Source of the DNA: Pseudomonadota bacterium | Lineage (GTDB): Bacteria > Pseudomonadota > Gammaproteobacteria > UBA4575 | Reading direction: 5' to 3' | Assembly (NCBI GenBank): GCA_009839635.1 | Contig: VXPJ01000002.1 | Location: 1 to 41,328, forward strand | DNA length: 41,328 nt | Part shown: in pieces, positions 2,110 through 34,244 of the stretch | Numbering within the stretch: position 1 is the stretch's first letter | How the letters are laid out: every line of letters starts with the position of its first letter | Notes under the pieces: model-generated | What the model was told of the DNA's origin: nothing | Seen by the model: only the letters and a program-made list of their open reading frames with translations | Databases searched by the model: none | Translations under genes and position numbers: made by a program

Positions 2110-2778
2110 ATGGTGATACAAGTCAAACATGTTCTCGGCGACCAGGAACTTCATCAGGTACGTGAATTGCTGGCCAGTGCAAAATTCCAGGACGGCAGAC
2201 TTTCTGCCGGGCTTTCTGCCCGGCAGGTGAAAAACAACGAAGAGGTCTGTAGCAAACAAACGGTTTCAGAGCTTAACCACATTGTGATGGGCAATCTGGT
2301 ACGCCATCCCGAGTATAAGATTGCGGCACTCCCACACCGCATTGCGGTGCCCTTTTACGTGCGGTACGGCAAGGGCATGGCGTATGGAGAACACATGGAC
2401 GATCCTGTGATGGGAGAGGAAAACCGGTATCGCTCGGATATTGCCATTACCGTATTTTTGAATTCGCCCGATGAATACGAAGGCGGGGAACTGGTGATTA
2501 GCACGCCCTTTGGACGTCAGCCGATCAAGTGCCCGGCGGGTGACGCCGTGTTGTATCCTGCCTCGACACGTCATCAGGTGATCCCGGTAACGAGCGGTGA
2601 GCGTCTGGTGGCTGTGACTTGGGTGCAGAGCCTGGTGCGAAGCTACGAACAACGCGACCTGCTTTATCAACTCGGCAAGGCCCGTGAGAAAATGTTGCGC
2701 AAGGCCCCTGATTCCGAGGATAGCCGACGCATTGACAACGTGTACCTCAACCTAGTGCGCATGTGGAGTGCAGTCTGA
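2110..2778 (+). CDS. Fe(II)/2-oxoglutarate-dependent PKHD-type hydroxylase (PiuC/YbiX family).
   Basis: Collinear with E. coli YbiX as I recall it: MVIQVKHVL..., ...GRLSAG...QVKNNEE..., HMDDP (HxD), ITVFLNSPDEYEGGELVI, PAGDAVLYPASTRHQV (distal His), RLVAVTWVQS. The track ORF starts at 2077; the ATG at 2110 matches the family N-terminus. Confidence 0.8.
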   Translation: MVIQVKHVLGDQELHQVRELLASAKFQDGRLSAGLSARQVKNNEEVCSKQTVSELNHIVMGNLVRHPEYKIAALPHRIAVPFYVRYGKGMAYGEHMDDPVMGEENRYRSDIAITVFLNSPDEYEGGELVISTPFGRQPIKCPAGDAVLYPASTRHQVIPVTSGERLVAVTWVQSLVRSYEQRDLLYQLGKAREKMLRKAPDSEDSRRIDNVYLNLVRMWSAV

Positions 2779-2910
2779 AATGAGGGACCCCGTGGGAACA
2801 GGACCGAGGGCCAGGTTTGCATGATCTAATGATGCGGAGGTGGAATTCCGTACCAAGCTGGCCTTCTTGCGGCCTGGAACGGATACAGAAACGGCTTTTT
2901 GAAAAATCGG

Positions 2911-3114
2911 CTAGGGTTTGGAGCCTACTTCCTCGTGAGCATCGTCCACCACATCCATGGCGACCTTCGAATACTCTTCTTTGAAGCCGTCGAGCTCTGA
3001 CCCTTTCTCTGGCAGCCAATAGCTTTCGGCCGTCAATTTCCCGCTTTGCTCGAGTTCTATGAATTTCTTTTGCATCTCAAGCAGTTTCTGGATCTTTTCC
3101 TGTTTGGAACTCAC
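2911..3114 (-). CDS. Hypothetical small acidic protein, 67 aa.
   Basis: ORF MSSKQEKIQKLLEMQKKFIELEQSGKLTAESYW...VVDDAHEEVGSKP. It lies on the same strand as, and downstream of, the Cas6-like/DsrC-like genes. The family is unrecognised. Confidence 0.4.
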   Translation of the reverse strand: MSSKQEKIQKLLEMQKKFIELEQSGKLTAESYWLPEKGSELDGFKEEYSKVAMDVVDDAHEEVGSKP

Positions 3115-3631: not shown

Positions 3632-4321
3632 TTATTTTTCCTGTGACTGCCGGACTGCGTCAATACCCTTATGAGGTAGGAACAGGCCGCAGCCCACTTT
3701 GCGGCCCGGGCCTAGGCCGTGTTGCTGCAGGTGAATGGACTCTTCTTTCTCCAGGCTGTCAATCATCAAGCTGCGTGTAGCCAGATTGTCCCCGGGCATC
3801 CGCAGCACGTGTGCCCGTCCGCTCATCATTTTCCTGGCATGTATGCCCTGGTCCCTCAGCAGCCTGTCCGCCTGGTCCAGGAAGGCTGCCTCGTCGGTGA
3901 GATGATCCGTAACAATGTAGCGCGCGAAAATCGTGGTCTGTGAAGAAAGCAATTTCTCGTGGGGTTGGCTCAGGATCAGTTCATGAGCACCGACCTGCAT
4001 CCTTCTGCCTGCAAGCTGCTTGGCCTCGGGGATCCGGTGTTTTGGCAGTCTCAGCATGAAACGCGTGCGGCGGGACAAGCTCAGTAACGCATCCGGTTCC
4101 TGCGGCCTGATCCAGCCATTCCCCGACTCGGCCCCGTGGATCAGGTGGATCCCGGCCTGGGTCTCTTCTGTCATCCAGGTCAGTTCAGCCTGAATGGCCC
4201 TGTAAAGGTCATAGGCATGGTCCAGCGGCAATTGCTTGCACTGTACCTTGAATGACAAATCGATGACATCGTCCGGTACGACGTACTGCTTGCCCTTGTC
4301 TTCTCGATCCTGCCAGTACAT
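3632..4321 (-). CDS. Cas6/Cmx6-like RAMP-superfamily protein (orphan; no CRISPR or other cas genes in the window).
   Basis: The C-terminus carries an exact Cas6 glycine-rich loop of the form G-h-G-x5-G-h-G: GLGPGRKVGCG, followed by LFLPHK. The N-terminus reads VIDLSFKVQCKQLPLDHAYDLYRAIQ, which resembles my recollection of the Cmx6 (type I-MYXAN Cas6) signature. At ~230 aa it fits a two-RRM Cas6. The start at 4321 lies 7 nt after the upstream stop; the track ORF runs to 4516 through a low-complexity extension. Confidence 0.55.
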   Translation of the reverse strand: MYWQDREDKGKQYVVPDDVIDLSFKVQCKQLPLDHAYDLYRAIQAELTWMTEETQAGIHLIHGAESGNGWIRPQEPDALLSLSRRTRFMLRLPKHRIPEAKQLAGRRMQVGAHELILSQPHEKLLSSQTTIFARYIVTDHLTDEAAFLDQADRLLRDQGIHARKMMSGRAHVLRMPGDNLATRSLMIDSLEKEESIHLQQHGLGPGRKVGCGLFLPHKGIDAVRQSQEK

Positions 4322-4328
4322 TGCAGGG

Positions 4329-4505
4329 CTAGTCGGGGATTTTATTGGCCGCGGTGAATACCGATTCCAGGATGTCTTCCCAGTTTTCGGGAGTGTCATG
4401 AAAAGGAGGGCGCACATCCATGCGAAAGAACCGTTCCTCCTTCTGTGCGTGCTCGCCGATCTTTTCCTTGAGTTCCTCAAATGACTGCAGCTCGTGGTGC
4501 TGCAT
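4329..4505 (-). CDS. Small acidic hypothetical protein, ~58 aa (alternative starts at 4529 and 4532).
   Basis: MQHHELQSFEELKEKIGEHAQKEERFFRMDVRPPFHDTPENWEDILESVFTAANKIPD. It is tightly packed, starting 7 nt after the TauD-like stop and ending 7 nt before the Cas6-like start. No family recognised. Confidence 0.4.
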   Translation of the reverse strand: MQHHELQSFEELKEKIGEHAQKEERFFRMDVRPPFHDTPENWEDILESVFTAANKIPD

Positions 4506-4512
4506 GAGGATC

Positions 4513-5520
4513 TCACTCAGCCACAACATCATCGGTGTGCCGCATGTCGTTCGCGAGGTCGGGTCTGGCCACACGTTCATAAAAGCGGGCCCGGTACAGC
4601 AGGCGATTCGAGCGGGGTTTATCAGAAAACATGATTCGATTATGCAGCACATTGTTGCAAATCACACCCTCACCACTTTGCAGACGGTGGCTGAACTGGT
4701 ATGGGTTGTCATCGAGGATATCCAGCAAGGTGGACCTTGCCCGCGCGCATGCCTGACTGTCTTTCCACTGGATGTTGCGGGTACGGGCGGTATAGCGCGT
4801 GTATAAGGTCTGTGTGGGCCCGTCAATCAAAAACACGGGCCCGGTTGTCTCAAGATCCGGCCGTTCACTGTTTTCAGGATTGGGAGGGATCGTCATGACT
4901 TCGGGGTCCATCAGGGCCTCGATGTGTTCCGGGTCATGATCGCGCAGCAGGATGTAAAGGATTTCAGGGTCCAGGTAGGTGTTTTCACCGCCGCTCTTGG
5001 CAGGGCGCACACAATGCATCAAAAATGCCCGGATGCGTTGTGTATCTTGGTTGTAATAGCCGTCGGTGTGCCAGTTCAGCGGCTTGTTCGTGTACGGAAT
5101 GTACGAGCTTCCAGGCCCTTTGGGCAAGGCCTGTATGGATGAAATCCGATCCCGGTCTGCGCAAAAGTTGGCATCCATGTGGATCAGGCCCAACTGCCTG
5201 GCAAGGGCGGTGACAATGTTTTTGTCCTGCACATCGTCACGCCTGGTCCTGTAGATGGCGAGATTGGTCTTCTCGCACATCTGCAACAAGCTGTCTTTTT
5301 CTTCCTGGGTCAGCTGGCAGGGGTTTTGGATGTCCACGATCAGCTGTTCCGTACGGGCCGGGTAGTTCCTGAGTTTGCGTGCCCGCCATTGGCGGTATGC
5401 GTTGGTGTTTTCAAGTAAGAACTGCTGCATGGGCTGGCGAGCACAGAAATGATCCGAGGGAGAAGGGAAAAGACTGTGCGACTGTGTGTGGACCCCCGTG
5501 CGAAATAATGCCTGAGACAC
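4513..5520 (-). CDS. TauD/TfdA-family Fe(II)/2-oxoglutarate dioxygenase.
   Basis: NWHTDGYY (HxD facial triad), distal NNVLHNR, and LYRARF near the C-terminus, in a ~300-aa protein. The longest ORF starts at the GTG at 5520; the ATG at 5430 (MQQFLLEN...) is an alternative start. Confidence 0.65.
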   Translation of the reverse strand: MSQALFRTGVHTQSHSLFPSPSDHFCARQPMQQFLLENTNAYRQWRARKLRNYPARTEQLIVDIQNPCQLTQEEKDSLLQMCEKTNLAIYRTRRDDVQDKNIVTALARQLGLIHMDANFCADRDRISSIQALPKGPGSSYIPYTNKPLNWHTDGYYNQDTQRIRAFLMHCVRPAKSGGENTYLDPEILYILLRDHDPEHIEALMDPEVMTIPPNPENSERPDLETTGPVFLIDGPTQTLYTRYTARTRNIQWKDSQACARARSTLLDILDDNPYQFSHRLQSGEGVICNNVLHNRIMFSDKPRSNRLLYRARFYERVARPDLANDMRHTDDVVAE

Positions 5521-5667
5521 TTGTGGTTTAGCTTAATGTTATCGACCTGATAAATCCTATCTCTATCGGGATAACCTGCTTTTGGGTTCGCCCCCCATGG
5601 AGGGGATTTTGTCCTCTAGGTCCTGCTTCTAGACTCATCAAGGTATGTTTAGAACCTTTAGGCTTCT

Positions 5668-25163: not shown

Positions 25164-26945
25164 ATGAACTTTAGGAACCTTGCGGGCGCATGCTTGATCA
25201 GCATAGGGACATGTGCTCATGCGCTCGATGAAGTCGTTGTTACCCCCGCCCGATATGCTCAGTCACTCGGGGAGGTCGTACCTTCCGTAGTGGTCATTAC
25301 CCGTGAAATGATCGAGCGCAGCCCCTCTGTGGACATCGCCGGCCTGTTGCGCTGGCATGCGGGTCTGGAAATTAGCCGCACGGGCGGTACCGGGCAACAG
25401 ACATCCGTGTTTATCCGGGGCACGGAAAGTGATCATGCTACGGTGCTCATTAACGGTGTGAAAATGAATTCCGCTACGGTTGGTATCGGTGCACTGGAGA
25501 TGATCAACACGTCGGTGATTGACCGAATTGAAATCGTCAAGGGGCCCCGTTCGACGGTGTACGGATCGGATGCTGTAGGCGGCGTTATCAACATCATTAC
25601 CTCTAACTTTGGGCAGGACGATGAGAACTCTACAAGCTTTCATGTGATGCAGGGACGGTACGGCATGGACGAGCAAGGCGTGAGGCTGCGCTATGGAAAC
25701 GACCAAGCCTCGGGCAACCTGTCTTTCAGCCGACTGGACACGCAGGGGTTTCCAGCAAGAAATACATCCGGCACGGATCACGGACACGATAATGAAACGT
25801 TTGACTTCAATATCCAAACAAAGGTGGGCGCAGGTGAGGTTGCACTTGGTTTTTGGCAGGCGAAGGGCAATACGGAGTACGACAGTTTTGGCAGTGATAA
25901 TGACCAGGATCGAAAGAACAATATTCTGAGGGCGGCGCTGACGGTACCCGTGTCCGACAACTGGCACTCCACCCTGTCCATGTCGCGAACGAAGGATGAG
26001 ATTCGCCAGAATCAGGAAAATTCTTTATCTTCGGGAAACAAGGATTTTGCCTTCACAGACCGGGTGGTCTACGACTGGAAAAATGATTTCACGCTGAATG
26101 ACCATGTGCTCGTTCTTGGGGCCTCACTCGCAGATGAGGACACTGATTCGCTGTCATTCGGCACCTCTTACCGGGAAAACACGGATATCTATTCGGTGTA
26201 TCTGCATGATCGGTTCGCACGCAATAGGCACAGCCTGTTCACGGCCACCCGCTATACGGATCATGAAGACTTCGGGAGTGCAGTCACCTGGAATCTGGAA
26301 TATGGCTATAGTCTGGCAACTCAGACAAGACTGTCCGCAAGTGTCGGTACAGGGTTTCGTGCGCCCAACAGCAGTTCAAGGTTTGGGTTTGGCGGAAATC
26401 CGGATCTGAGAGAAGAAACCTCCCGTTCCATCGAAGCAGGAATCAGTTATGATCTGAACCCCCTGACTGCGTTGTCACTGCGCATTTTCGATAACAGGAT
26501 AGAGGATTTGATCGACTGGGATGTCACGATCAGTCAGAACAGAAATATTGAAAGGGCACGTATTAAGGGGATCGAGGCAGCCTTAAGTCATCAGTCTGGA
26601 CCCTGGGATATCCGCTTGGAAGGCATAATCCAGAACCCCCGCAACGAGACCGAGAATTCGCGCTTGTTGAGGCGGGCAAAGCGTACATTGACTGGATCTT
26701 TGGCGTACAGCCGGGAGCAGTTTTTTGTGCAGATTAACAGTCTGGTCACGTCGCAAAGAAGGGATTTCGGTGACGTGGCTTTATCCGGCTACGGCCTGGT
26801 CGATGTGTCTGCGGGGTATCACTTCCCCTACGTGACGCTGGCATTAAAGGCAGAGAATTTGCTGGACAAGGAATTTGAGCTGGCCTCGGGATACAACCAG
26901 CCCGGCCAGTCCGTATTTGCAGAGCTGCAAATTAAACCCATGTAG
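25164..26945 (+). CDS. btuB: TonB-dependent outer-membrane receptor, BtuB (cobalamin)-like.
   Basis: Signal peptide ...GTCAHA|LDE, TonB box DEVVVTPAR, and a plug region collinear with my recollection of E. coli BtuB (SVFIRGTESDHATVLINGV...IVKGPRSTVYGSDAVGGVINIIT). About 590 aa. It is adjacent to a cobalamin adenosyltransferase. The track ORF starts at the GTG at 25143. Confidence 0.75.
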   Translation: MNFRNLAGACLISIGTCAHALDEVVVTPARYAQSLGEVVPSVVVITREMIERSPSVDIAGLLRWHAGLEISRTGGTGQQTSVFIRGTESDHATVLINGVKMNSATVGIGALEMINTSVIDRIEIVKGPRSTVYGSDAVGGVINIITSNFGQDDENSTSFHVMQGRYGMDEQGVRLRYGNDQASGNLSFSRLDTQGFPARNTSGTDHGHDNETFDFNIQTKVGAGEVALGFWQAKGNTEYDSFGSDNDQDRKNNILRAALTVPVSDNWHSTLSMSRTKDEIRQNQENSLSSGNKDFAFTDRVVYDWKNDFTLNDHVLVLGASLADEDTDSLSFGTSYRENTDIYSVYLHDRFARNRHSLFTATRYTDHEDFGSAVTWNLEYGYSLATQTRLSASVGTGFRAPNSSSRFGFGGNPDLREETSRSIEAGISYDLNPLTALSLRIFDNRIEDLIDWDVTISQNRNIERARIKGIEAALSHQSGPWDIRLEGIIQNPRNETENSRLLRRAKRTLTGSLAYSREQFFVQINSLVTSQRRDFGDVALSGYGLVDVSAGYHFPYVTLALKAENLLDKEFELASGYNQPGQSVFAELQIKPM

Positions 26946-26967
26946 TGCGTCTGTTGGCGGACTGTGC

Positions 26968-27516
26968 GTGACCGGCAGAACAACCAAAATTTATACCCGA
27001 ACTGGTGATCGGGGCGAAACTGGGTTGCCAGGTGGCAGGCGTGTGCGCAAGGATTGTCCTGAAATCCAAGCACTGGGCGATGTCGATGAACTGAATTCTG
27101 TTATCGGCATGATCCTGGCCCATGATTTGCCAACGGATGTAAAAAACAGTCTTACAGAAATCCAGCATCGCCTGTTTGATCTGGGTGCGGAATTAGGCAA
27201 TCCACGCTTGCGGAGGGTTCGTCCAGGAATGGTTACCTACTTGGAAGAACGGATGGATACCTTTACAGAGAACCTGCCAGCACTGAGAAGCTTCATACTC
27301 CCCAATGGCGTGCGTGCGGCTTCAGTTTGCCACCTGGCCCGCGCTGTTTGCAGACGGGCAGAAAGAAGCGTGGTGGTGTTGAGCAAGCATCAAACCGTCA
27401 ACCCGGAGATCCAAATCTACTTAAACAGGCTGTCCGATTTTCTGTTTATTTCGTGCAGGATCCTATCCGCCAGTTCAGACCACCCGGAAACACCTTGGCC
27501 AGACAAGCCTGCTTGA
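26968..27516 (+). CDS. PduO-type ATP:cob(I)alamin adenosyltransferase.
   Basis: KIYTRTGDRGETGL...ALGDVDELNS...IQHRLFDLGAEL...FILPNG...HLARAVCRRAER...YLNRLSD. I chose the GTG at 26968, just after the btuB stop; the track ORF (26875) overlaps btuB. Confidence 0.85.
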   Translation: MTGRTTKIYTRTGDRGETGLPGGRRVRKDCPEIQALGDVDELNSVIGMILAHDLPTDVKNSLTEIQHRLFDLGAELGNPRLRRVRPGMVTYLEERMDTFTENLPALRSFILPNGVRAASVCHLARAVCRRAERSVVVLSKHQTVNPEIQIYLNRLSDFLFISCRILSASSDHPETPWPDKPA

Positions 27517-27526
27517 TGGGTCCGGC

Positions 27527-28309
27527 TTAGTTCTGTGTCCTGGTGCCGAGCAAAATATCCTTGGCGCGCAACTGCTTCAAGGTCTTTCCACCGCTCCTGA
27601 TCACGACCTCCGGGTTTGGATGCTGCAACTCTTTGGCGATTTTTCCAAGAAGCTGTTTGCCTGTTTCCAGCTGGTTGTTTTTCATCTGTTCGATCAGCTT
27701 TGCCGTGATGGAGTTCAGTTCCATGAAGCCGACCTTGCCCTGCCTATCCCTGTAGATCATCAGAAACACAGGCTGTGCACTGGTCTGTTTCGGCTGAAAA
27801 TCAGGACCTATCTTATGCACCGGAAAGTGGTACCCGAAGAATTCTGCCAGAGGCGAAAGGACGGGCACGTTATGTATCAAATCGCCCGTGGGATCTACAT
27901 TTGTCATGTCTGGTTCAAGATCTGAATTAGCGAGACAGATTTCTATCCATTCGTAGTGAGCAAGCTCATTGATGAATACTGGATCTTCAGGCCGGGGCAT
28001 TCTCTCGTTTTCCAGGTAATCAAGGAATTCGCGGGAAATGTCCTTGAAATAGGGTGATGCGGATCGATGGTTGGCAAAAAAATCCCGAACCATCCTATGC
28101 CAGTCCTTATCGCTGTAGAGCCTGCGCAGCACGGGGAACGCACTTTTGATGAAATTCTGCACATTTCGATAGAGAAGGCCGCGATAGATTTTCATCCGCC
28201 GGTCTTCGATGCCTTCCGGTGCACTATTCCTGCTGGGGTCCCTCAGGTGCGCAGTAAACTCGTACTGGACTTTTTTGAATGCAGGTATTTTTGAAGGTTC
28301 GACTGGCAT
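27527..28309 (-). CDS. DUF2063-family protein (HvfC/BufC/MbnC-like RiPP precursor-binding partner).
   Basis: 260 aa with FTAHLRDP...YRGLLYRNVQNFIKSAFPV...FFANHRSASPYFKDISREF. The start lies 3 nt after the DUF692 stop. The family call is from memory of DUF2063 proteins paired with DUF692. Confidence 0.65.
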   Translation of the reverse strand: MPVEPSKIPAFKKVQYEFTAHLRDPSRNSAPEGIEDRRMKIYRGLLYRNVQNFIKSAFPVLRRLYSDKDWHRMVRDFFANHRSASPYFKDISREFLDYLENERMPRPEDPVFINELAHYEWIEICLANSDLEPDMTNVDPTGDLIHNVPVLSPLAEFFGYHFPVHKIGPDFQPKQTSAQPVFLMIYRDRQGKVGFMELNSITAKLIEQMKNNQLETGKQLLGKIAKELQHPNPEVVIRSGGKTLKQLRAKDILLGTRTQN

Positions 28310-28312
28310 GGA

Positions 28313-29173
28313 TCAGCTGAGCTGTACATGGGACGCCGTGTCCCGCTTGTCCTGCAGGTTGCGAATTGTGCGTACTTCCTGCACCAGATCCTCCAGAGGA
28401 GGGATATTGAAATCCCGTTCCAGCAAAGTCGGTATGGAGCCGAACAACTCATAGGTCTTGTCCAGCAAGTCCCAGACAGGATCGATCACACCTGCGCCAT
28501 GGGTGTCCACAAGCAAATCTTCCTCTTCCACGTAGTGGCCGGCGATGTGGCAATATGCAATGCGTTCGCCGGGCAATGCCTGCAGGAATTCCATCGGGTC
28601 ATACTGGTGGTTAACAGAGTTGACATAGATGTTGTTTACATCCAGAAGCAGGTTGCAATCTGCTTCCTCGAGCACGGCGTTGACGAAATCGATTTCGTCT
28701 ATCTCTTTGCCTGGCGCTGCATAATAGGAGACATTTTCCATAGCGATCTTCTGTTCCAGGATATCCTGGACCCGCCTGATTCTGCCGGCAACATAATGCA
28801 CCGCCTCTTCAGTAAAGGGGATGGGCATCAGGTCATACAGGTGCCCGTCATCGGAACAGTAGCTCAGGTGCTCGCTGTAACAGCGGATGTCATGCACATG
28901 TATGAATTTCTTGACATCCTGCACCAAAGACTCATCCAGGGGGGCAGGGCTGCCGATTGAGAGCGATAGTCCGTGTGAGACAAACGGGATTTTTTCTGTG
29001 AAGGCGCGAAAGCGTTTGCTTAATTTTCCTCCGACTCCTATCCAGTTCTCGGGCGCGACTTCCATGAAGTCGATACAGGCCGGGAAGCTCGCTTCAAGCT
29101 CACCAAGAAGGTCGCGCCGGAAACCGAGACCCGAGCCGTGTACCGCATTGATATTTTGATGGATTGTACCCAT
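28313..29173 (-). CDS. DUF692 / multinuclear non-haem iron oxidative enzyme (MNIO; MbnB/HvfB/BufB-like).
   Basis: 286 aa TIM-barrel-like protein: GSGLGFRRDL...IDFMEVAPENW...VSHGLSLSIGS...YSEHLSY...ENVSYY...LLLDVNNIYVNSVNH...IAYCHIAGH...DTHG...ERD. These are characteristic DUF692 blocks. Confidence 0.8.
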   Translation of the reverse strand: MGTIHQNINAVHGSGLGFRRDLLGELEASFPACIDFMEVAPENWIGVGGKLSKRFRAFTEKIPFVSHGLSLSIGSPAPLDESLVQDVKKFIHVHDIRCYSEHLSYCSDDGHLYDLMPIPFTEEAVHYVAGRIRRVQDILEQKIAMENVSYYAAPGKEIDEIDFVNAVLEEADCNLLLDVNNIYVNSVNHQYDPMEFLQALPGERIAYCHIAGHYVEEEDLLVDTHGAGVIDPVWDLLDKTYELFGSIPTLLERDFNIPPLEDLVQEVRTIRNLQDKRDTASHVQLS

Positions 29174-29229
29174 GTGGCATGGTTCCTAGGGGCTGCGAGA
29201 AAAGCCGCAAGACTGGCAAATTGTCCGGT

Positions 29230-29880
29230 TCATTTCCTGAAATGTCTGGCAATCCAGTAATCAATGGACAGGTATCTCCCTGCCCCCGTGAAAAACAGTG
29301 CCAGCAACATCACAAAGTAGGTCGCGGCAAATTCGATACCATTATTCAAAATTACAAAACCTCCTTTTTCTGTCAGCCATTTGTAATTCCCGTGTTTTTT
29401 CAGCAGGGATTTGGCGGCCTGCAGGCGTTTGCCCACTTCCTCACTGTTTTCCAGGCTGTGCTGGGCAGATGGAATCCCGATGGCTGCAAGTGGTTTGGCC
29501 GTGCTGGTGGCAGGGTCGCCCGGTGCTATCGCAAACCAGCCCTGGTTCCAGTGCACTGCAAAAATTGCTACAAGCATAGTGATCATCAAGGGGATGGTAA
29601 ACCAGCGTACTGCAACTCCAAACAGCAAGGCGATACCGCCGAACAACTCTGCGGATGCAGCAAGAATTGCCATGAGCATGGGGGCGGGCAGGCCAAGTCC
29701 CCAATCGGGATTTCCGAACCAACTTGCAATGTCTTCTAGGTGTATGAATTTGTGCAGGCCGACAGCAATAAATACAGGCGCCAGATACAGGCGCAGCGCA
29801 AGTGGTCCCAGAAAGTCGATGGCCCGAAGCCTGTCCAGGACGTCTTGCAATGAATTTGCGGTAGTGACAAGTACTGACAT
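29230..29880 (-). CDS. DoxX-family membrane protein (long, HvfX-like form).
   Basis: 216 aa with about 4 TM helices (LALRLYLAPVFIAVGLHKF; MLMAILAASAELFGGIALLFG; IPLMITMLVAIFAVH; ATYFVMLLALFFTGAG) and a ~60-aa soluble insert. It is adjacent to the DUF692/DUF2063 pair. Confidence 0.7.
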   Translation of the reverse strand: MSVLVTTANSLQDVLDRLRAIDFLGPLALRLYLAPVFIAVGLHKFIHLEDIASWFGNPDWGLGLPAPMLMAILAASAELFGGIALLFGVAVRWFTIPLMITMLVAIFAVHWNQGWFAIAPGDPATSTAKPLAAIGIPSAQHSLENSEEVGKRLQAAKSLLKKHGNYKWLTEKGGFVILNNGIEFAATYFVMLLALFFTGAGRYLSIDYWIARHFRK

Positions 29881-29906
29881 TGGAGTCTCCTGTGAAGCGA
29901 TATTTC

Positions 29907-30545
29907 CTAGCGGATCACACCTTTTTCACTGTATTCGCAAAGATCAAAAATCGGACATTCATGGCATTTGGGCTTGCGTGCCAGACAGGTATAACGACCA
30001 AGCAGAATCAGCCAGTGATGGGCATGCAACTTGTATTTTTCAGGTACCCGCTTTTCCAGTCCAAGTTCTACGGCAAGCACATTTTTTCCAGGCGCGAGAC
30101 CGGTCCGGTTGGATACCCGGAATATGTGTGTATCCACCGCAATAGTAGGCTGGTTGAAGGCATTGTTAAGTACTACGTTTGCAGTTTTTCTGCCGACACC
30201 CGGCAATGACTGTAGTGCTTCCCGGTTGCGCGGTATTCTCCCCCCGTGTTTTTCGAGCAAAATGCGACAGGTCTTGATGATATTTTCAGCCTTGCTGTTG
30301 TATAGACCGATTGACTTGATATAGGTCTTCAACTTTTTTTCTCCAAGCTTGAGCATCTTTCTTGGCGTATTGGCGACTTTGTAAAGATCCCTGGTTGCCT
30401 TGTTTACGCTTACATCTGTAGCTTGGGCAGAAAGTATGACGGAAATCAGGAGTTCAAAATTGGACTTGTGTACGAGTTCTGTTCTTGGACTCGGATTGGC
30501 CTTTTTCAAGCGGCGAAAGATCTTTTCGTATTTTTCCTGATTCAT
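29907..30545 (-). CDS. nth: Endonuclease III.
   Basis: ELLISVILSAQATD, HhH-GPD LPGVGRKTANVVL, VDTHIFRV, and the Fe-S cluster loop CLARKPKCHECPIFDLC. The start at 30545 gives 212 aa; the track ORF extends to 30677. Confidence 0.9.
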   Translation of the reverse strand: MNQEKYEKIFRRLKKANPSPRTELVHKSNFELLISVILSAQATDVSVNKATRDLYKVANTPRKMLKLGEKKLKTYIKSIGLYNSKAENIIKTCRILLEKHGGRIPRNREALQSLPGVGRKTANVVLNNAFNQPTIAVDTHIFRVSNRTGLAPGKNVLAVELGLEKRVPEKYKLHAHHWLILLGRYTCLARKPKCHECPIFDLCEYSEKGVIR

Positions 30546-30561
30546 GTGTATGGATAAGAGG

Positions 30562-30957
30562 TTACTTGTTGAGCGATAGTTCCTTTTTTCTGCGTTCGAA
30601 CAGCGTTTGTCTTTCTTGGCGCACAGATTCAAGTCTTTGTGTGCGCCGCTTGCGGTTGTCACGCGAAAACGCTGCAAATTCTTTTTTCAGTTTTCGCTGC
30701 TCGCATGAAGGAACGGTTTTATGTATCCGGTCAAAACGGGTATTCGCTTCCAGCGTTATGCAGTCGACCGGACATGGAGGGATGCACAACCTGCAGCCTG
30801 TGCAGTACCGGGTTATGACTGTGTGCATATGCCGGGATGCCCCGACGATCGCATCAAAGGGGCAGGCCTTGATGCACAATGTACAGCCGATACACTGCTG
30901 TTCATCGATTCTTGCAAGATACTTTCCCGTTGGGATGATGAGATCTGGGTTTTGCAC
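30562..30957 (-). CDS. RnfB C-terminal-like 2x[4Fe-4S] ferredoxin with a basic tail.
   Basis: [12 protein letters not shown] and [12 protein letters not shown] motifs, and a Lys/Arg-rich C-terminal ~50 aa. It lies between metG and nth, in the position of rnf/rsx-nth linkage. Confidence 0.75.
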
Positions 30958-30964
30958 AGGAAAT

Positions 30965-32992
30965 CTATTTTACGCGCATGCCAGGAGTAGCCCCGCTGTC
31001 AGGTTGCAGTAGGAATATGTCTTTTCCACCGGGGCCGGCCGCAAGTACCATGCCTTCTGAAGTGCCAAAACGCATTTTCCGAGGAGCCAGGTTCGCAACC
31101 AGCACGGTCAGGCGGCCTTCAATGTCCTGCGGGGCGTAGGCAGACTTTATTCCTGCAAACACGGTGCGCTGCACATTCCCTGTGGGCTCTCCCAGGTCCA
31201 GCGTCAGTTTGAGCAGTTTATCTGCTCCTTCTACCTGTTCCGCCTGGACAATTTTTGCAACCCTGAAATCCAGTTTTGCGAAGTCGTCGAAGGTGATTTC
31301 GTCGTTGATCGGGTCAGCAGGTGCAGGCGCCTCATCTCGTTTTGAATCTTCTATCATGTTCTCCACCGACATTTTTTCGATTCGGGTGATCAGCGGTTTG
31401 AATGTGTTTATCTTATGCCCTTCGGGCAACGGTTTTCCTGAGGCCAGATCGCTCCAGCAGGTTTCCGTATTCAGAAAGGTTTCTGACTTTTGTGCAAGGC
31501 TGGGCGTCACGGGCTTCAAGTAGCCGATCAGCAACCGGTACATGTTCAAGCCAAAGCTGCAGACCTGGTGTGCTTGGTCTCGCTTGGTCTCGTCTTTTGC
31601 GAGTTCCCAGGGCTTGTGGGCATCGATGATCTGGTTGGCTTCATCGGCATGTTTCATGATCGAGCGCATGGCTTGTGAGTAGTTTCGAGATTCGTAGAGC
31701 TCTTTTATGTGTTCGTTTCTTTGTGCTGCATAGTCAAACACCTCGTACCCGCCCTCGATAAAGGCCGAAGTCAGTTTTCCTTCAAAATATTTGTGGATAA
31801 ACCCGGAACAGCGGCTGGCTATATTCACCAATTTTCCCACGACGTCGCTGTTCACACGTTGCTGGAAATCATCCAGGCTGAGGTCAATGTCACTGACATC
31901 AGGTCCCAGCTTTGCCGCAAAGTAGTAACGCAAATACTCAGGGTTCAGATGATCAAGATAGGTGCGTGCCTTGACAAAGGTGCCTCGAGACTTTGACATT
32001 TTTTGGCCGTCGACTGTCAGGAATCCATGACAGTACACGGCGGTGGGAATTCGGTAGTCTGCGCCATGCAGCATTGCAGGCCAGAACAGCATATGGAAGT
32101 ACGCGATATCCTTGCCGATAAAATGGTACACCTCGTATTGGCTGTCGGCATTCCAGTAGGCATCGAAGTCCCGGCCGGTGCGGTCGCAGTACTGTTGCAG
32201 GCTGGCCATGTATCCTACCGGCGCATCCAGCCACACGTAGAAATACTTGCCAGGCGCATCGGGTATCTCGAAACCGAAATATGGCGCATCACGCGAGATG
32301 TCCCAGTCCCTGAGATCGTCCTGGAACCACTCTTTGAGCTTGTTGGTGATTCCCGGTTGCAATGGGTTGTTCTCGATCCAGTCGTGCAGCACTTCCTTGA
32401 AGTCGTTCAGCTTGAAGAAGTAGTGCAGGTTTTCCTTTTTGACCGGTGTGGCACCGCTTACGGATGAATACGGGTTGATCAGGTCCGCAGGCGTATACGT
32501 GCTCCCACAGACCTCGCAGTTGTCTCCGTACTGGTCCTTGGCACCGCATCTCGGACATTCGCCCTTGACAAAACGGTCAGGCAGAAACACCTGATCCTGC
32601 GGGTCGTACAGGTCTACAACCGTTTTTGTGATGATATGTCCGCTTTCTTTCAGCCGCTCATAGATGCGCGTGGAATGGAACCTGTTTTCTTCGGAATGAG
32701 TAGAGTGGTAGTTATCGAACTGAATGTGAAAGTCTGAAAAATCTTTCTGATGCTCGGCACTGACCCGTGATATCAGTTGTTCAGGGGTTATTCCTTCCTG
32801 CTGGGCCTTGAGCATGATCGGTGTGCCATGCGCATCATCTGCACATATATACAGACAGTCGTGCCCACACATCTTCTGAAATCGCGTCCAGATGTCGGTT
32901 TGAATGTACTCGACCAGATGTCCGATATGTATGGGTCCGTTGGCATAAGGCAGCGCGCTGGTGACGAGGATATTTCGTTTTGTTTCAGGCAT
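30965..32992 (-). CDS. metG: Methionyl-tRNA synthetase with a C-terminal tRNA-binding domain.
   Basis: [14 protein letters not shown] (HIGH), KMSKSRG (KMSKS), zinc knuckle CPRCG...CEVCG, and a C-terminal EMAP/Trbp111-like domain. 675 aa. Confidence 0.95.
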
Positions 32993-33155
32993 GTTGGGGC
33001 GATCCGTTTTTGCAATTTTACCCTATTGAGGATTTGAAAAAATTATCATCGTCTTGCAGCGTGAGTCCGGGGAACTGGGAGTCTTTGCTGCCCTAGTGGA
33101 CATGGTATAGTAGGCTCCCCTCGTGCTAGACCCAAATTTTTCAGGAGAGTTAAGA

Positions 33156-34244
33156 ATGGTTCAGCTTACAGAAGAGCAGGTGGAGACAGCACTGAAACAG
33201 ATTCAGGACCCTTATCTTGGAAAAAATCTGGTTGCCGGCAATACCGTAAAAAAAATAGAGACGGAAGGCGGCAAGGTAAACATCACGGTCAAGCTGGGCT
33301 ACCCCGCGAAAGGGGTCTCGAACGCTCTTGCCGAGCAGATCGAGGCTAAAATTGGGGAAGCCGGTGCGGAGCACGTGCAGGCAGACGTAAGCTGGCAGAT
33401 TGAGGCACATACTGTACAAAAAAGCCTCAAACCTCTCGAAAATATCAAAAACATCATTGCCGTGGCATCCGGTAAGGGGGGTGTGGGCAAATCCACGACC
33501 GCGGTGAATCTTGCCTTGGCACTGTCCATGGAGGGCGCGACGGTTGGAATGCTGGATGCAGACATTTATGGCCCCAGTCAGCCCCGTATGCTTGGTGTGA
33601 GCGGACAGCCCGAGTCGAGCGATGGCAAAAGCCTGGAGCCCATGGTAGCTCATGGACTGCAAGCCATGTCAATCGGGTTTTTGATCGATGAGGAAACCCC
33701 CATGATCTGGCGGGGCCCGATGGTTACCCAGGCACTTGAGCAGTTGCTGAACGATACTTGCTGGCGAGGACTTGACTACCTGGTGGTCGACTTGCCTCCT
33801 GGCACGGGAGATGTGCAGTTGACACTGGCTCAGAAGATACCTGTAAGTGGAGCAATTATTGTTACCACGCCTCAGGACATTGCCCTGCTTGATGCGCGCA
33901 AGGGACTGAAGATGTTTGAGAAAGTGGAAGTGCCGGTGCTGGGGGTCGTGGAAAATATGAGCATTCACATATGCAGTAAGTGTGGCCATGAAGAGGCAAT
34001 ATTCGGTCAGGGAGGGGGCCAGCGCATGGCTGAAGAATCTGGTGTCGACATACTGGGTGCCTTGCCTTTGGACATCAAGATTCGTGAACAGGCGGACGGC
34101 GGCAACCCTTCAGTAGCAATGATGCCGGACAGTCGCATCGCTGAAATCTATCGTGAGATTGCACGCAAGGCTGCTGCCAAACTTGCTGTGCAAGGTAAAG
34201 ATTACAAGGCACGGTTTCCGAAAATTGTCATCCAGAATACCTGA
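33156..34244 (+). CDS. apbC: Fe-S cluster carrier ATPase ApbC/Mrp.
   Basis: Deviant Walker A SGKGGVGKST, an N-terminal DUF59-like region, and the CSKCGH (CxxC) motif. The ATG at 33156 is preceded by CAGGAGAG. Confidence 0.9.
   Translation: MVQLTEEQVETALKQIQDPYLGKNLVAGNTVKKIETEGGKVNITVKLGYPAKGVSNALAEQIEAKIGEAGAEHVQADVSWQIEAHTVQKSLKPLENIKNIIAVASGKGGVGKSTTAVNLALALSMEGATVGMLDADIYGPSQPRMLGVSGQPESSDGKSLEPMVAHGLQAMSIGFLIDEETPMIWRGPMVTQALEQLLNDTCWRGLDYLVVDLPPGTGDVQLTLAQKIPVSGAIIVTTPQDIALLDARKGLKMFEKVEVPVLGVVENMSIHICSKCGHEEAIFGQGGGQRMAEESGVDILGALPLDIKIREQADGGNPSVAMMPDSRIAEIYREIARKAAAKLAVQGKDYKARFPKIVIQNT

Follow-up and report, generated by a model that had tools for sequence, protein, structure and literature searches.

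The stretch of DNA analysed here (hereafter the window) comprises 41,328 nucleotides of contig VXPJ01000002.1, from assembly GCA_009839635.1 of an uncultured marine gammaproteobacterium, and carries on one strand three consecutive genes for a DoxX-family membrane protein, a multinuclear non-haem iron oxidase (MNIO, DUF692) and a DUF2063 partner protein, which we designate hvfX, hvfB and hvfC (Table 1). A first-pass annotation, made from the letters alone, had described them as a maturation trio for a ribosomally made and post-translationally modified peptide (RiPP) with no precursor gene beside it, and the open reading frames (ORFs) together with their Pfam matches bear out the three genes at the positions that it gave. 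Re-reading the sequence returned exactly the distances on which it had relied, namely 26 nt from the nth stop codon to the hvfX start, 56 nt between hvfX and hvfB, 3 nt between hvfB and hvfC and 10 nt from hvfC to the convergent gene, and the two spacers further upstream measure 7 nt (metG-ferredoxin) and 16 nt (ferredoxin-nth). The claimed lack of room for a precursor gene in cis held as well: no precursor-like ORF of the window occupies or bridges the gaps of the trio, and the one ORF that extends across the 56 nt between hvfX and hvfB (54 aa, minus strand, 29100-29264) was rejected as a hidden precursor, having a single Cys, no signal peptide and no repeats. The ORF list and a GKCG scan revealed no HvfA-like ORF anywhere in the window, so that no precursor gene adjoins the MNIO gene or shares its operon here, a difference in gene organisation and not in protein family.

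All three proteins exceed the curated equivalog cut-offs of NCBIfam for the Hvf families, with 229.5 bits for HvfX (NF050144, cut-off 80), 442.9 bits for HvfB (NF003818, cut-off 360) and 302.5 bits for HvfC (NF050145, cut-off 142), whereas the MNIO falls below the cut-offs for BufB (NF050167; 256.8 against 310 bits) and MbnB (TIGR04159; 44.7 against 325 bits) and also below those for ApyH and ChrH. The closest solved structure to HvfB is PDB 3BWW from Histophilus somni (E = 8.6e-78), a protein reported to be 72% identical to Haemophilus influenzae HvfB (bioRxiv 10.64898/2026.07.17.739211), and the metal-binding motifs of the window protein (HGLSLS, SEHLS, EN, LDVNNIYVN, HIAGH, VDTHG and ERDFN) are all identical in the alignment with 3BWW. 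The essential site-3 residues of the H. influenzae enzyme are N175, D242 and H244 (bioRxiv 10.64898/2026.07.17.739211), and the corresponding N, D and H, mapped by motif and not by direct alignment, are retained in the window HvfB. HvfC matches PDB 3DEE, a Neisseria DUF2063 structure, at 1.7e-11, and the enzymes are 65-84% identical to orthologues encoded directly beside an hvfA. Most probably, these three genes (hvfX-hvfB-hvfC) form the maturation half of a captophorin system of the Hvf/oxazolin type, whose HvfA precursor is made from a separate locus.

That precursor was located in the same assembly, a metagenome-assembled genome (1.69 Mb, 156 contigs, completeness 96.6%); its nearest public relatives carry the labels uncultured Thiotrichales or Gammaproteobacteria. 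A six-frame GKCG scan of the whole assembly gave one strong match, the only EGKCG-repeat ORF, at positions 2513-2833 (minus strand) of the 5.9-kb contig C138. The encoded protein of 106 residues, MKTRSELKPLVVAVSAVLATGTFVISTANA|DENPFQMTELSSGYMVADAHG...EEGKCGEGKCGEGKCGG...EEGKCGEGKCGGG (the vertical bar marks the likely signal cleavage site), carries a Sec signal peptide and five EGKCG repeats in a 3+2 layout, keeps the segment NPFxMTELSSGYMVAD (NPFxMxELSxGYM) that is common to cis-encoded precursors, and passes the HvfA model NF050137 with 30.5 bits against a cut-off of 19.5. Its gene has folD and a PCD gene as neighbours on one side; on the other stand a divergent gene for a membrane protein, folP and a gene of the MBL fold. 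The suggestion in the first-pass annotation that the substrate might be a precursor encoded elsewhere, to be sought genome-wide among ORFs of several types including the EGKCG-repeat one, is supported by this HvfA; nowhere in the genus are the loci of precursor and maturases linked.

Table 1. Genes and spacer at the window locus (positions in the window)
Feature	Position	Strand	Size, family matches and setting
hvfX	29230-29880	minus	216 aa, no Cys; Pfam DoxX, 76 bits; inner-membrane protein, DoxX family
hvfB	28313-29173	minus	286 aa; Pfam MbnB_TglH_ChrH (MNIO, DUF692), 348 bits
hvfC	27527-28309	minus	260 aa; Pfam DUF2063 and NGO1945_C
nth (endonuclease III)	29907-30545	minus	Pfam HhH-GPD, HHH and EndIII_4Fe-2S
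Gene for an RnfB-like 2x[4Fe-4S] ferredoxin, lying between metG and nth	30562-30957	minus	Pfam Fer4_21; NCBIfam rnfB subfamily TIGR01944, 100.9 bits
metG (methionyl-tRNA synthetase)	30965-32992	minus	Pfam tRNA-synt_1g, 523 bits; opens the co-directional run of six genes
Cob_adeno_trans gene (cobalamin adenosyltransferase)	26875-27516	plus	converges on hvfC, 10 nt apart
nth-hvfX spacer	29881-29906	minus	26 nt; holds only a ribosome-binding site, AGGAG

Within the genus the two halves of the system occur together: HvfB and HvfA both score above cut-off in all 12 sampled genomes, and in the eight of these that have both genes on a single contig, 305-469 kb separate the loci (for instance 1,664,611 against 1,359,964 in G001 and 1,245,347 against 836,284 in G009; distances in G004, G005 and G011 were measured across the origin). 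The maturase locus, metG-fdx-nth-hvfX-hvfB-hvfC with the convergent cobalamin adenosyltransferase gene, recurs in G001, G004 and G009 and in the public genus genomes L025-L028, and the precursor locus reads MBL-folP-membrane-protein gene(-)-hvfA(+)-folD-PCD in G001, G004 and G009. Pairwise ratios of nonsynonymous to synonymous substitution rates (dN/dS) within the genus are 0.04-0.13 across all four hvf genes (hvfX 0.04-0.07, hvfB about 0.08, hvfC 0.05-0.13, with nth at 0.03-0.06), at synonymous divergences (dS) of 0.26-0.53 to the nearest compared genome and of about 1 or more, partly saturated, to two others. hvfA, hvfX, hvfB and hvfC have all been kept under purifying selection since the split.

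The other genera of the family show where hvfA came from, as there it directly follows nth. The order is nth-hvfA-hvfB-hvfC in G021 and nth-hvfA-[0.8 kb]-hvfB-hvfC in G014, the 0.8-kb spacer holding no recognisable hvfX, and in G016, G020, G024 and L030 an insert of 5.7-8.3 kb separates nth-hvfA from hvfX-hvfB-hvfC; a genome of another family (L102) has the uninterrupted series nth-hvfA-hvfX-hvfB-hvfC. The one insert that was annotated, that of G020 (L012:6275-11199), contains an aldehyde dehydrogenase gene and a thiamine pyrophosphate (TPP) enzyme gene on the opposite strand, followed by a gene for a glutamate-synthase-like flavin mononucleotide (FMN) protein just before hvfX, so that precursor and maturases already form separate transcription units in that genus. 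In sister genera the nth-hvf junction holds 120-240 nt plus hvfA, against 26 nt in the window, and the recipient site is empty in G014 and G021, which read MBL-folP-membrane-protein gene-PCD with neither hvfA nor folD. The cis order in sister genera and the empty recipient site together indicate that hvfA left the nth-hvfX junction in an ancestor of the genus, and by sequence comparison we read the 26-nt nth-hvfX spacer as the scar at the place where the promoter and hvfA sit in sister genera. The apparent embedding of the trio among housekeeping genes follows from the removal of the promoter-hvfA segment from its old neighbourhood next to nth. Presence and absence also go together across the family: four genomes without HvfB (G015, G017, G018 and G023) all lack HvfA too. 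In one fragmented genome, G013, HvfA stands at the edge of a contig and the only MNIO match is at BufB level.

Several smaller observations concern these related loci. In G014 the hvfA repeats are readable in two overlapping frames, both with EGKCG (L010:9228-9603; ORFs of 106 and 76 aa), which suggests a frameshift or repeat slippage. Inserts similar to that of L012 occur in L011, L013 and L030, and in L029 a glutamate-synthase-like gene stands directly before hvfX.

We then considered how the two separated units might be transcribed. Within 300 nt upstream of cis-encoded hvfA genes, a motif of the extracytoplasmic function (ECF) type, (G/A)AACTT-N16-17-GTCxTA, occurs in the sense orientation at 17 of 59 loci and in the antisense orientation at 2 of 59. 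The relocated hvfA has a corresponding element, GAACTT-N17-GTCCAA (GAACTTTTCCGGTGTTGAGGCAGTCCAA; C138:3105-3078, minus strand), placed 245-272 nt upstream of its start, in the region of about 320 nt between hvfA and the divergent gene. A loose form of the pattern has 34 matches on both strands of the whole genome, for an estimated chance of about 0.003 of finding one there in the right orientation, and the blocks GAAGAACTTT and GCAGTCCAAC are kept in 9 of 12 aligned genus genomes while the flanking bases vary. A Sigma70_r2 scan of the assembly found only three sigma factors, which are RpoD-, RpoH- and RpoE-like (on contigs C82, C68 and C103), and the RpoE-like protein, as the sole ECF sigma factor, is the likely reader of the hvfA promoter; work cited in PMC13097082 is reported there to link hvf-type operons with RpoE2/sigmaE in Haemophilus and Neisseria. 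HvfA is therefore probably a peptide made on demand, from what by its sequence would be a sigmaE-type promoter. The rpoE gene (C103:~4600-5190, minus strand) has an upstream motif of its own, GAACTC-N16-TCATAG. A block of about 55 nt in the hvfA 5' leader (TGCAATCGTGCAAATAGTATCACGGTTGGTCCAGCCGGATTCAATATGCTAGCTT; L007/C138 ~2960-3020, minus strand) is nearly invariant in most genus genomes; the hvfA 5' region, this block included, has no Rfam match, and the block may serve as an RNA element, as an operator or as a further promoter.

At the maturase locus, a pattern scan of window positions 27000-33500 detected no ECF-type motif, and the 26-nt nth-hvfX spacer, with room only for a ribosome-binding site, holds no terminator-like hairpin. 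From these features we infer that hvfXBC would be transcribed by read-through from metG-fdx-nth, or else from an unrecognised promoter inside nth. An ECF-type motif inside nth of G004 (L016:9469) was weighed as an internal hvfX promoter and set aside as a chance match, the homologous stretch of the window being coding sequence without the motif.

Within the same genome, the trio is not the only MNIO locus, as the assembly holds three MNIO genes, the window hvfB, one on C54 and one on C4. On C54 (positions 3647-5619; L005) a DUF2282 BufA1 gene lies directly upstream of a BufB-class gene followed by a DUF2063 BufC gene, and on C4 (L006:5360-7641) a BufB-BufC pair follows a BufA2-like precursor that has CKGKGGC repeats and the signal RRDFNK, which is Tat-like. 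Both of these MNIOs score above the BufB cut-off, each with its own adjacent precursor; with three enzyme pairs and three precursors, the precursor and maturase families of the genome match one to one. HvfX is the sole DoxX protein encoded in the genome (a single PF07681 match in the whole assembly), and both Buf clusters are without one.

A mechanism can be proposed from characterised homologues (PMC11252979; PMC13097082; bioRxiv 10.64898/2026.07.17.739211; PMC12452194). In the cytoplasm, HvfC would bind the region that follows the HvfA signal peptide and enable the mixed-valent diiron state of HvfB; HvfB, as the iron enzyme, would then oxidise the cysteines of all five EGKCG repeats to 5-thiooxazoles, in a four-electron step for each, and the Sec system would export the matured HvfA to the periplasm, where it would sequester Cu(I), HvfX presumably acting as a membrane accessory. 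By analogy, both this chemistry, from Cys to 5-thiooxazole, and the copper-binding role of the product are expected to apply here. As to history, the ancestral order in the family would have been nth-[ECF-type promoter]-hvfA-hvfX-hvfB-hvfC, and the promoter-hvfA segment would have moved to a place between the membrane-protein gene and folD, leaving hvfXBC 26 nt behind nth.

Some points weigh against this picture of a split but functional system with separately controlled halves. The ECF-type motif is unrecognisable in G004, G011 and G012, that is, in 3 of the 12 aligned genomes (G005 was left out of the alignment), and in generic sigma-70 and terminator scans, which covered window positions 27300-33300 and the hvfA locus, the counts did not exceed those of shuffled controls or the matches fell on the wrong strand. 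SigmaE control of hvfA and co-transcription of the trio with nth, including the constitutive co-transcription with metG-fdx-nth that the first-pass annotation had entertained, are both predictions from sequence features, and the pairing of HvfBC with HvfA in trans is likewise predicted, from family matching and co-occurrence. In the present assembly, which is fragmented into 156 contigs, hvfXBC and hvfA lie on separate contigs.

The alternatives differ in what they make of the separation. In the first-pass annotation, the MNIO pair might act on a non-peptide or large protein substrate unrelated to HvfA, a view whose sole support had been the missing cis precursor, alongside the clusters without an identified precursor that are listed in the MNIO landscape paper (PMC12452194); with a canonical HvfA in the genome that co-occurs with the pair, and with an HvfB and HvfC at equivalog level whose close orthologues adjoin an hvfA, this proposal has lost its basis and is hardly credible. 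It could also be argued that hvfXBC is a relic without function that rides on the transcription of nth, with HvfA working unmodified or modified by BufB, and genes with neither a cis precursor nor a recognisable promoter of their own might look that way, but the reading frames are intact in 12 of 12 genus genomes, the dN/dS values stay low over divergences reaching synonymous saturation, all HvfB metal ligands are retained and hvfA and hvfB are jointly present or jointly absent across the family, all of which makes a relic very improbable.

A different proposal is that HvfX, perhaps together with HvfBC, is made constitutively from the housekeeping operon and forms a platform shared by HvfA, BufA1 (C54) and the BufA2-like peptide (C4), its uncoupling from hvfA having been selected for. 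The single DoxX gene of the genome, the Buf clusters without a DoxX of their own and an ECF-type promoter found at hvfA and not at hvfXBC would all agree with it. However, each Buf precursor stands beside its own BufB/BufC pair scoring above the BufB cut-off, and DoxX is absent from many functioning captophorin clusters, such as the minimal fonABC. Substrate preference points the same way: in substrate scans, FonBC, whose MNIO belongs to the Lys-Cys group, leaves a Cys before a charged residue unprocessed (PMC13097082), which argues that HvfB acts on HvfA and not on the CKG-type peptide of C4, and since that peptide also has its own BufB/BufC, modification of the CKGKGGC repeats by HvfB is unlikely. 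Taken as a whole, we regard the shared platform as improbable. A broader rewiring into two units, in which the maturases and the sole DoxX are made constitutively from metG-fdx-nth, hvfA alone is induced by the envelope-stress sigma factor RpoE, and HvfX, possibly with HvfBC, also serves the DoxX-less bufferin clusters, strikes us as unlikely; if true, it would constitute a natural standing RiPP maturation platform to which precursors are supplied in trans.

On the preferred reading of an Hvf system whose precursor gene has moved away, the closest known counterpart is the hvf operon of nontypeable H. influenzae, hvfX-hvfA-hvfB-hvfC, whose product is oxazolin (PMC11252979) and whose chemistry has been revised to 5-thiooxazole (PMC13097082; bioRxiv 10.64898/2026.07.17.739211). 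A DoxX gene in first place is thus no oddity and matches the order of the prototype itself. Both systems have the same four families above the NCBIfam Hvf cut-offs, DoxX first, a Sec-exported EGKCG precursor and conserved HvfB iron ligands; they differ in that hvfA here lies outside the operon, at the distances given above for the genus and with its own ECF-type motif, that hvfXBC abuts nth, that the precursor has five Cys in a 3+2 layout against six in three AEGKCGEGKCG repeats, and that the host is an uncultured marine gammaproteobacterium and not a pathogen. With the fontiphorin cluster fonABC of Fontimonas thermophila (PMC13097082) the system shares the pair of MNIO and PME1 (DUF2063/RRE) and an EGKCG precursor of the Lys-Cys group, and by analogy a 5-thiooxazole copper-binding peptide would be expected as the product; unlike the minimal and contiguous fonABC, which has no DoxX, the window set includes one and its precursor is unlinked. 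Bufferin clusters of the bufABC(D)/gig type (PMC11626156; PMC12452194) have an MNIO of the same mega-cluster, the same type of partner and precursors with Sec signals, but the window MNIO is below the BufB cut-off, and the precursor cognate to it has EGKCG repeats and belongs to neither the DUF2282 nor the BufA2 type.

The trio therefore belongs to a known system as a standard class member in an unusual layout; more than 20,000 captophorin clusters are known (PMC13097082), and the annotation pipeline of NCBI would name proteins of this large and well-described class automatically. Published work offers no more than hints of the split itself. For the surplus precursors of Legionella, the MNIO landscape paper considers modification "at a different locus", and it leaves out of account about 4,000 MNIOs without a recognised adjacent precursor (PMC12452194); beyond that paper we found no other published hint of captophorin precursors modified by MNIOs from a distant locus. 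The surplus Legionella precursors occur together with complete clusters, whereas here the split is a clean one-to-one division that extends throughout the genus and whose ancestral cis order can be reconstructed. New here are the stepwise series from cis through a few kb to hundreds of kb apart, together with an empty recipient site, and also a precursor located in the same assembly, an ECF-type motif at the precursor only, estimates of selection and the placement of the sole DoxX in the trio. Surveys that look about five genes to either side of an MNIO would record an enzyme pair that lacks a precursor and, on C138, an orphaned precursor, and a whole-genome search for a family-matched precursor resolves both. 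The genus offers a natural case of uncoupled expression of precursor and maturases, which could be used to probe the need for co-induction of the maturases and the role of the lone DoxX.

The wider surroundings of the locus were compared over 80 HvfB loci from other genomes. At most of them an EGKCG-type precursor, or a variant, lies directly upstream of hvfB; 43 of the 80 have nth no more than 10 kb upstream of the hvf cluster, and at 34 of those a recognised precursor stands between nth and hvfB; the nth-linked lineages include Thioalkalispiraceae, Ectothiorhodospiraceae, Chromatiales, Methylococcales, Wenzhouxiangellaceae and Lysobacteraceae. The collinearity with housekeeping genes noted in the first-pass annotation is real, but it does not make the locus peculiar, since the order nth-hvfA-hvfB-hvfC is widespread in Gammaproteobacteria; we found no published mention of a linkage of nth and hvf. 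In loci L030-L103, metG and a gene for an RnfB-like ferredoxin often stand ahead of the nth that is linked to hvf, in several gammaproteobacterial orders.

A few other loci have no recognisable precursor within about 10 kb (L029, L038, L077 and L103). At two of these a DUF1841 gene (L077:1043-1477; L103:9465-9911) occupies the place of the precursor between nth and hvfB-hvfC-hvfX, with no EGKCG-type ORF in the flanks, and here a precursor may, independently, have been lost or be encoded at another place. Thiohalomonadaceae precursors carry a variant repeat, E[GA][QEK]CGANK or EAKCGEAKCG, that a plain GKCG search misses (L053:9671-9991; L068:8674-9991), and in L068 genes for an ECF sigma factor and a ZAS-type anti-sigma protein of 58 aa lie directly upstream.

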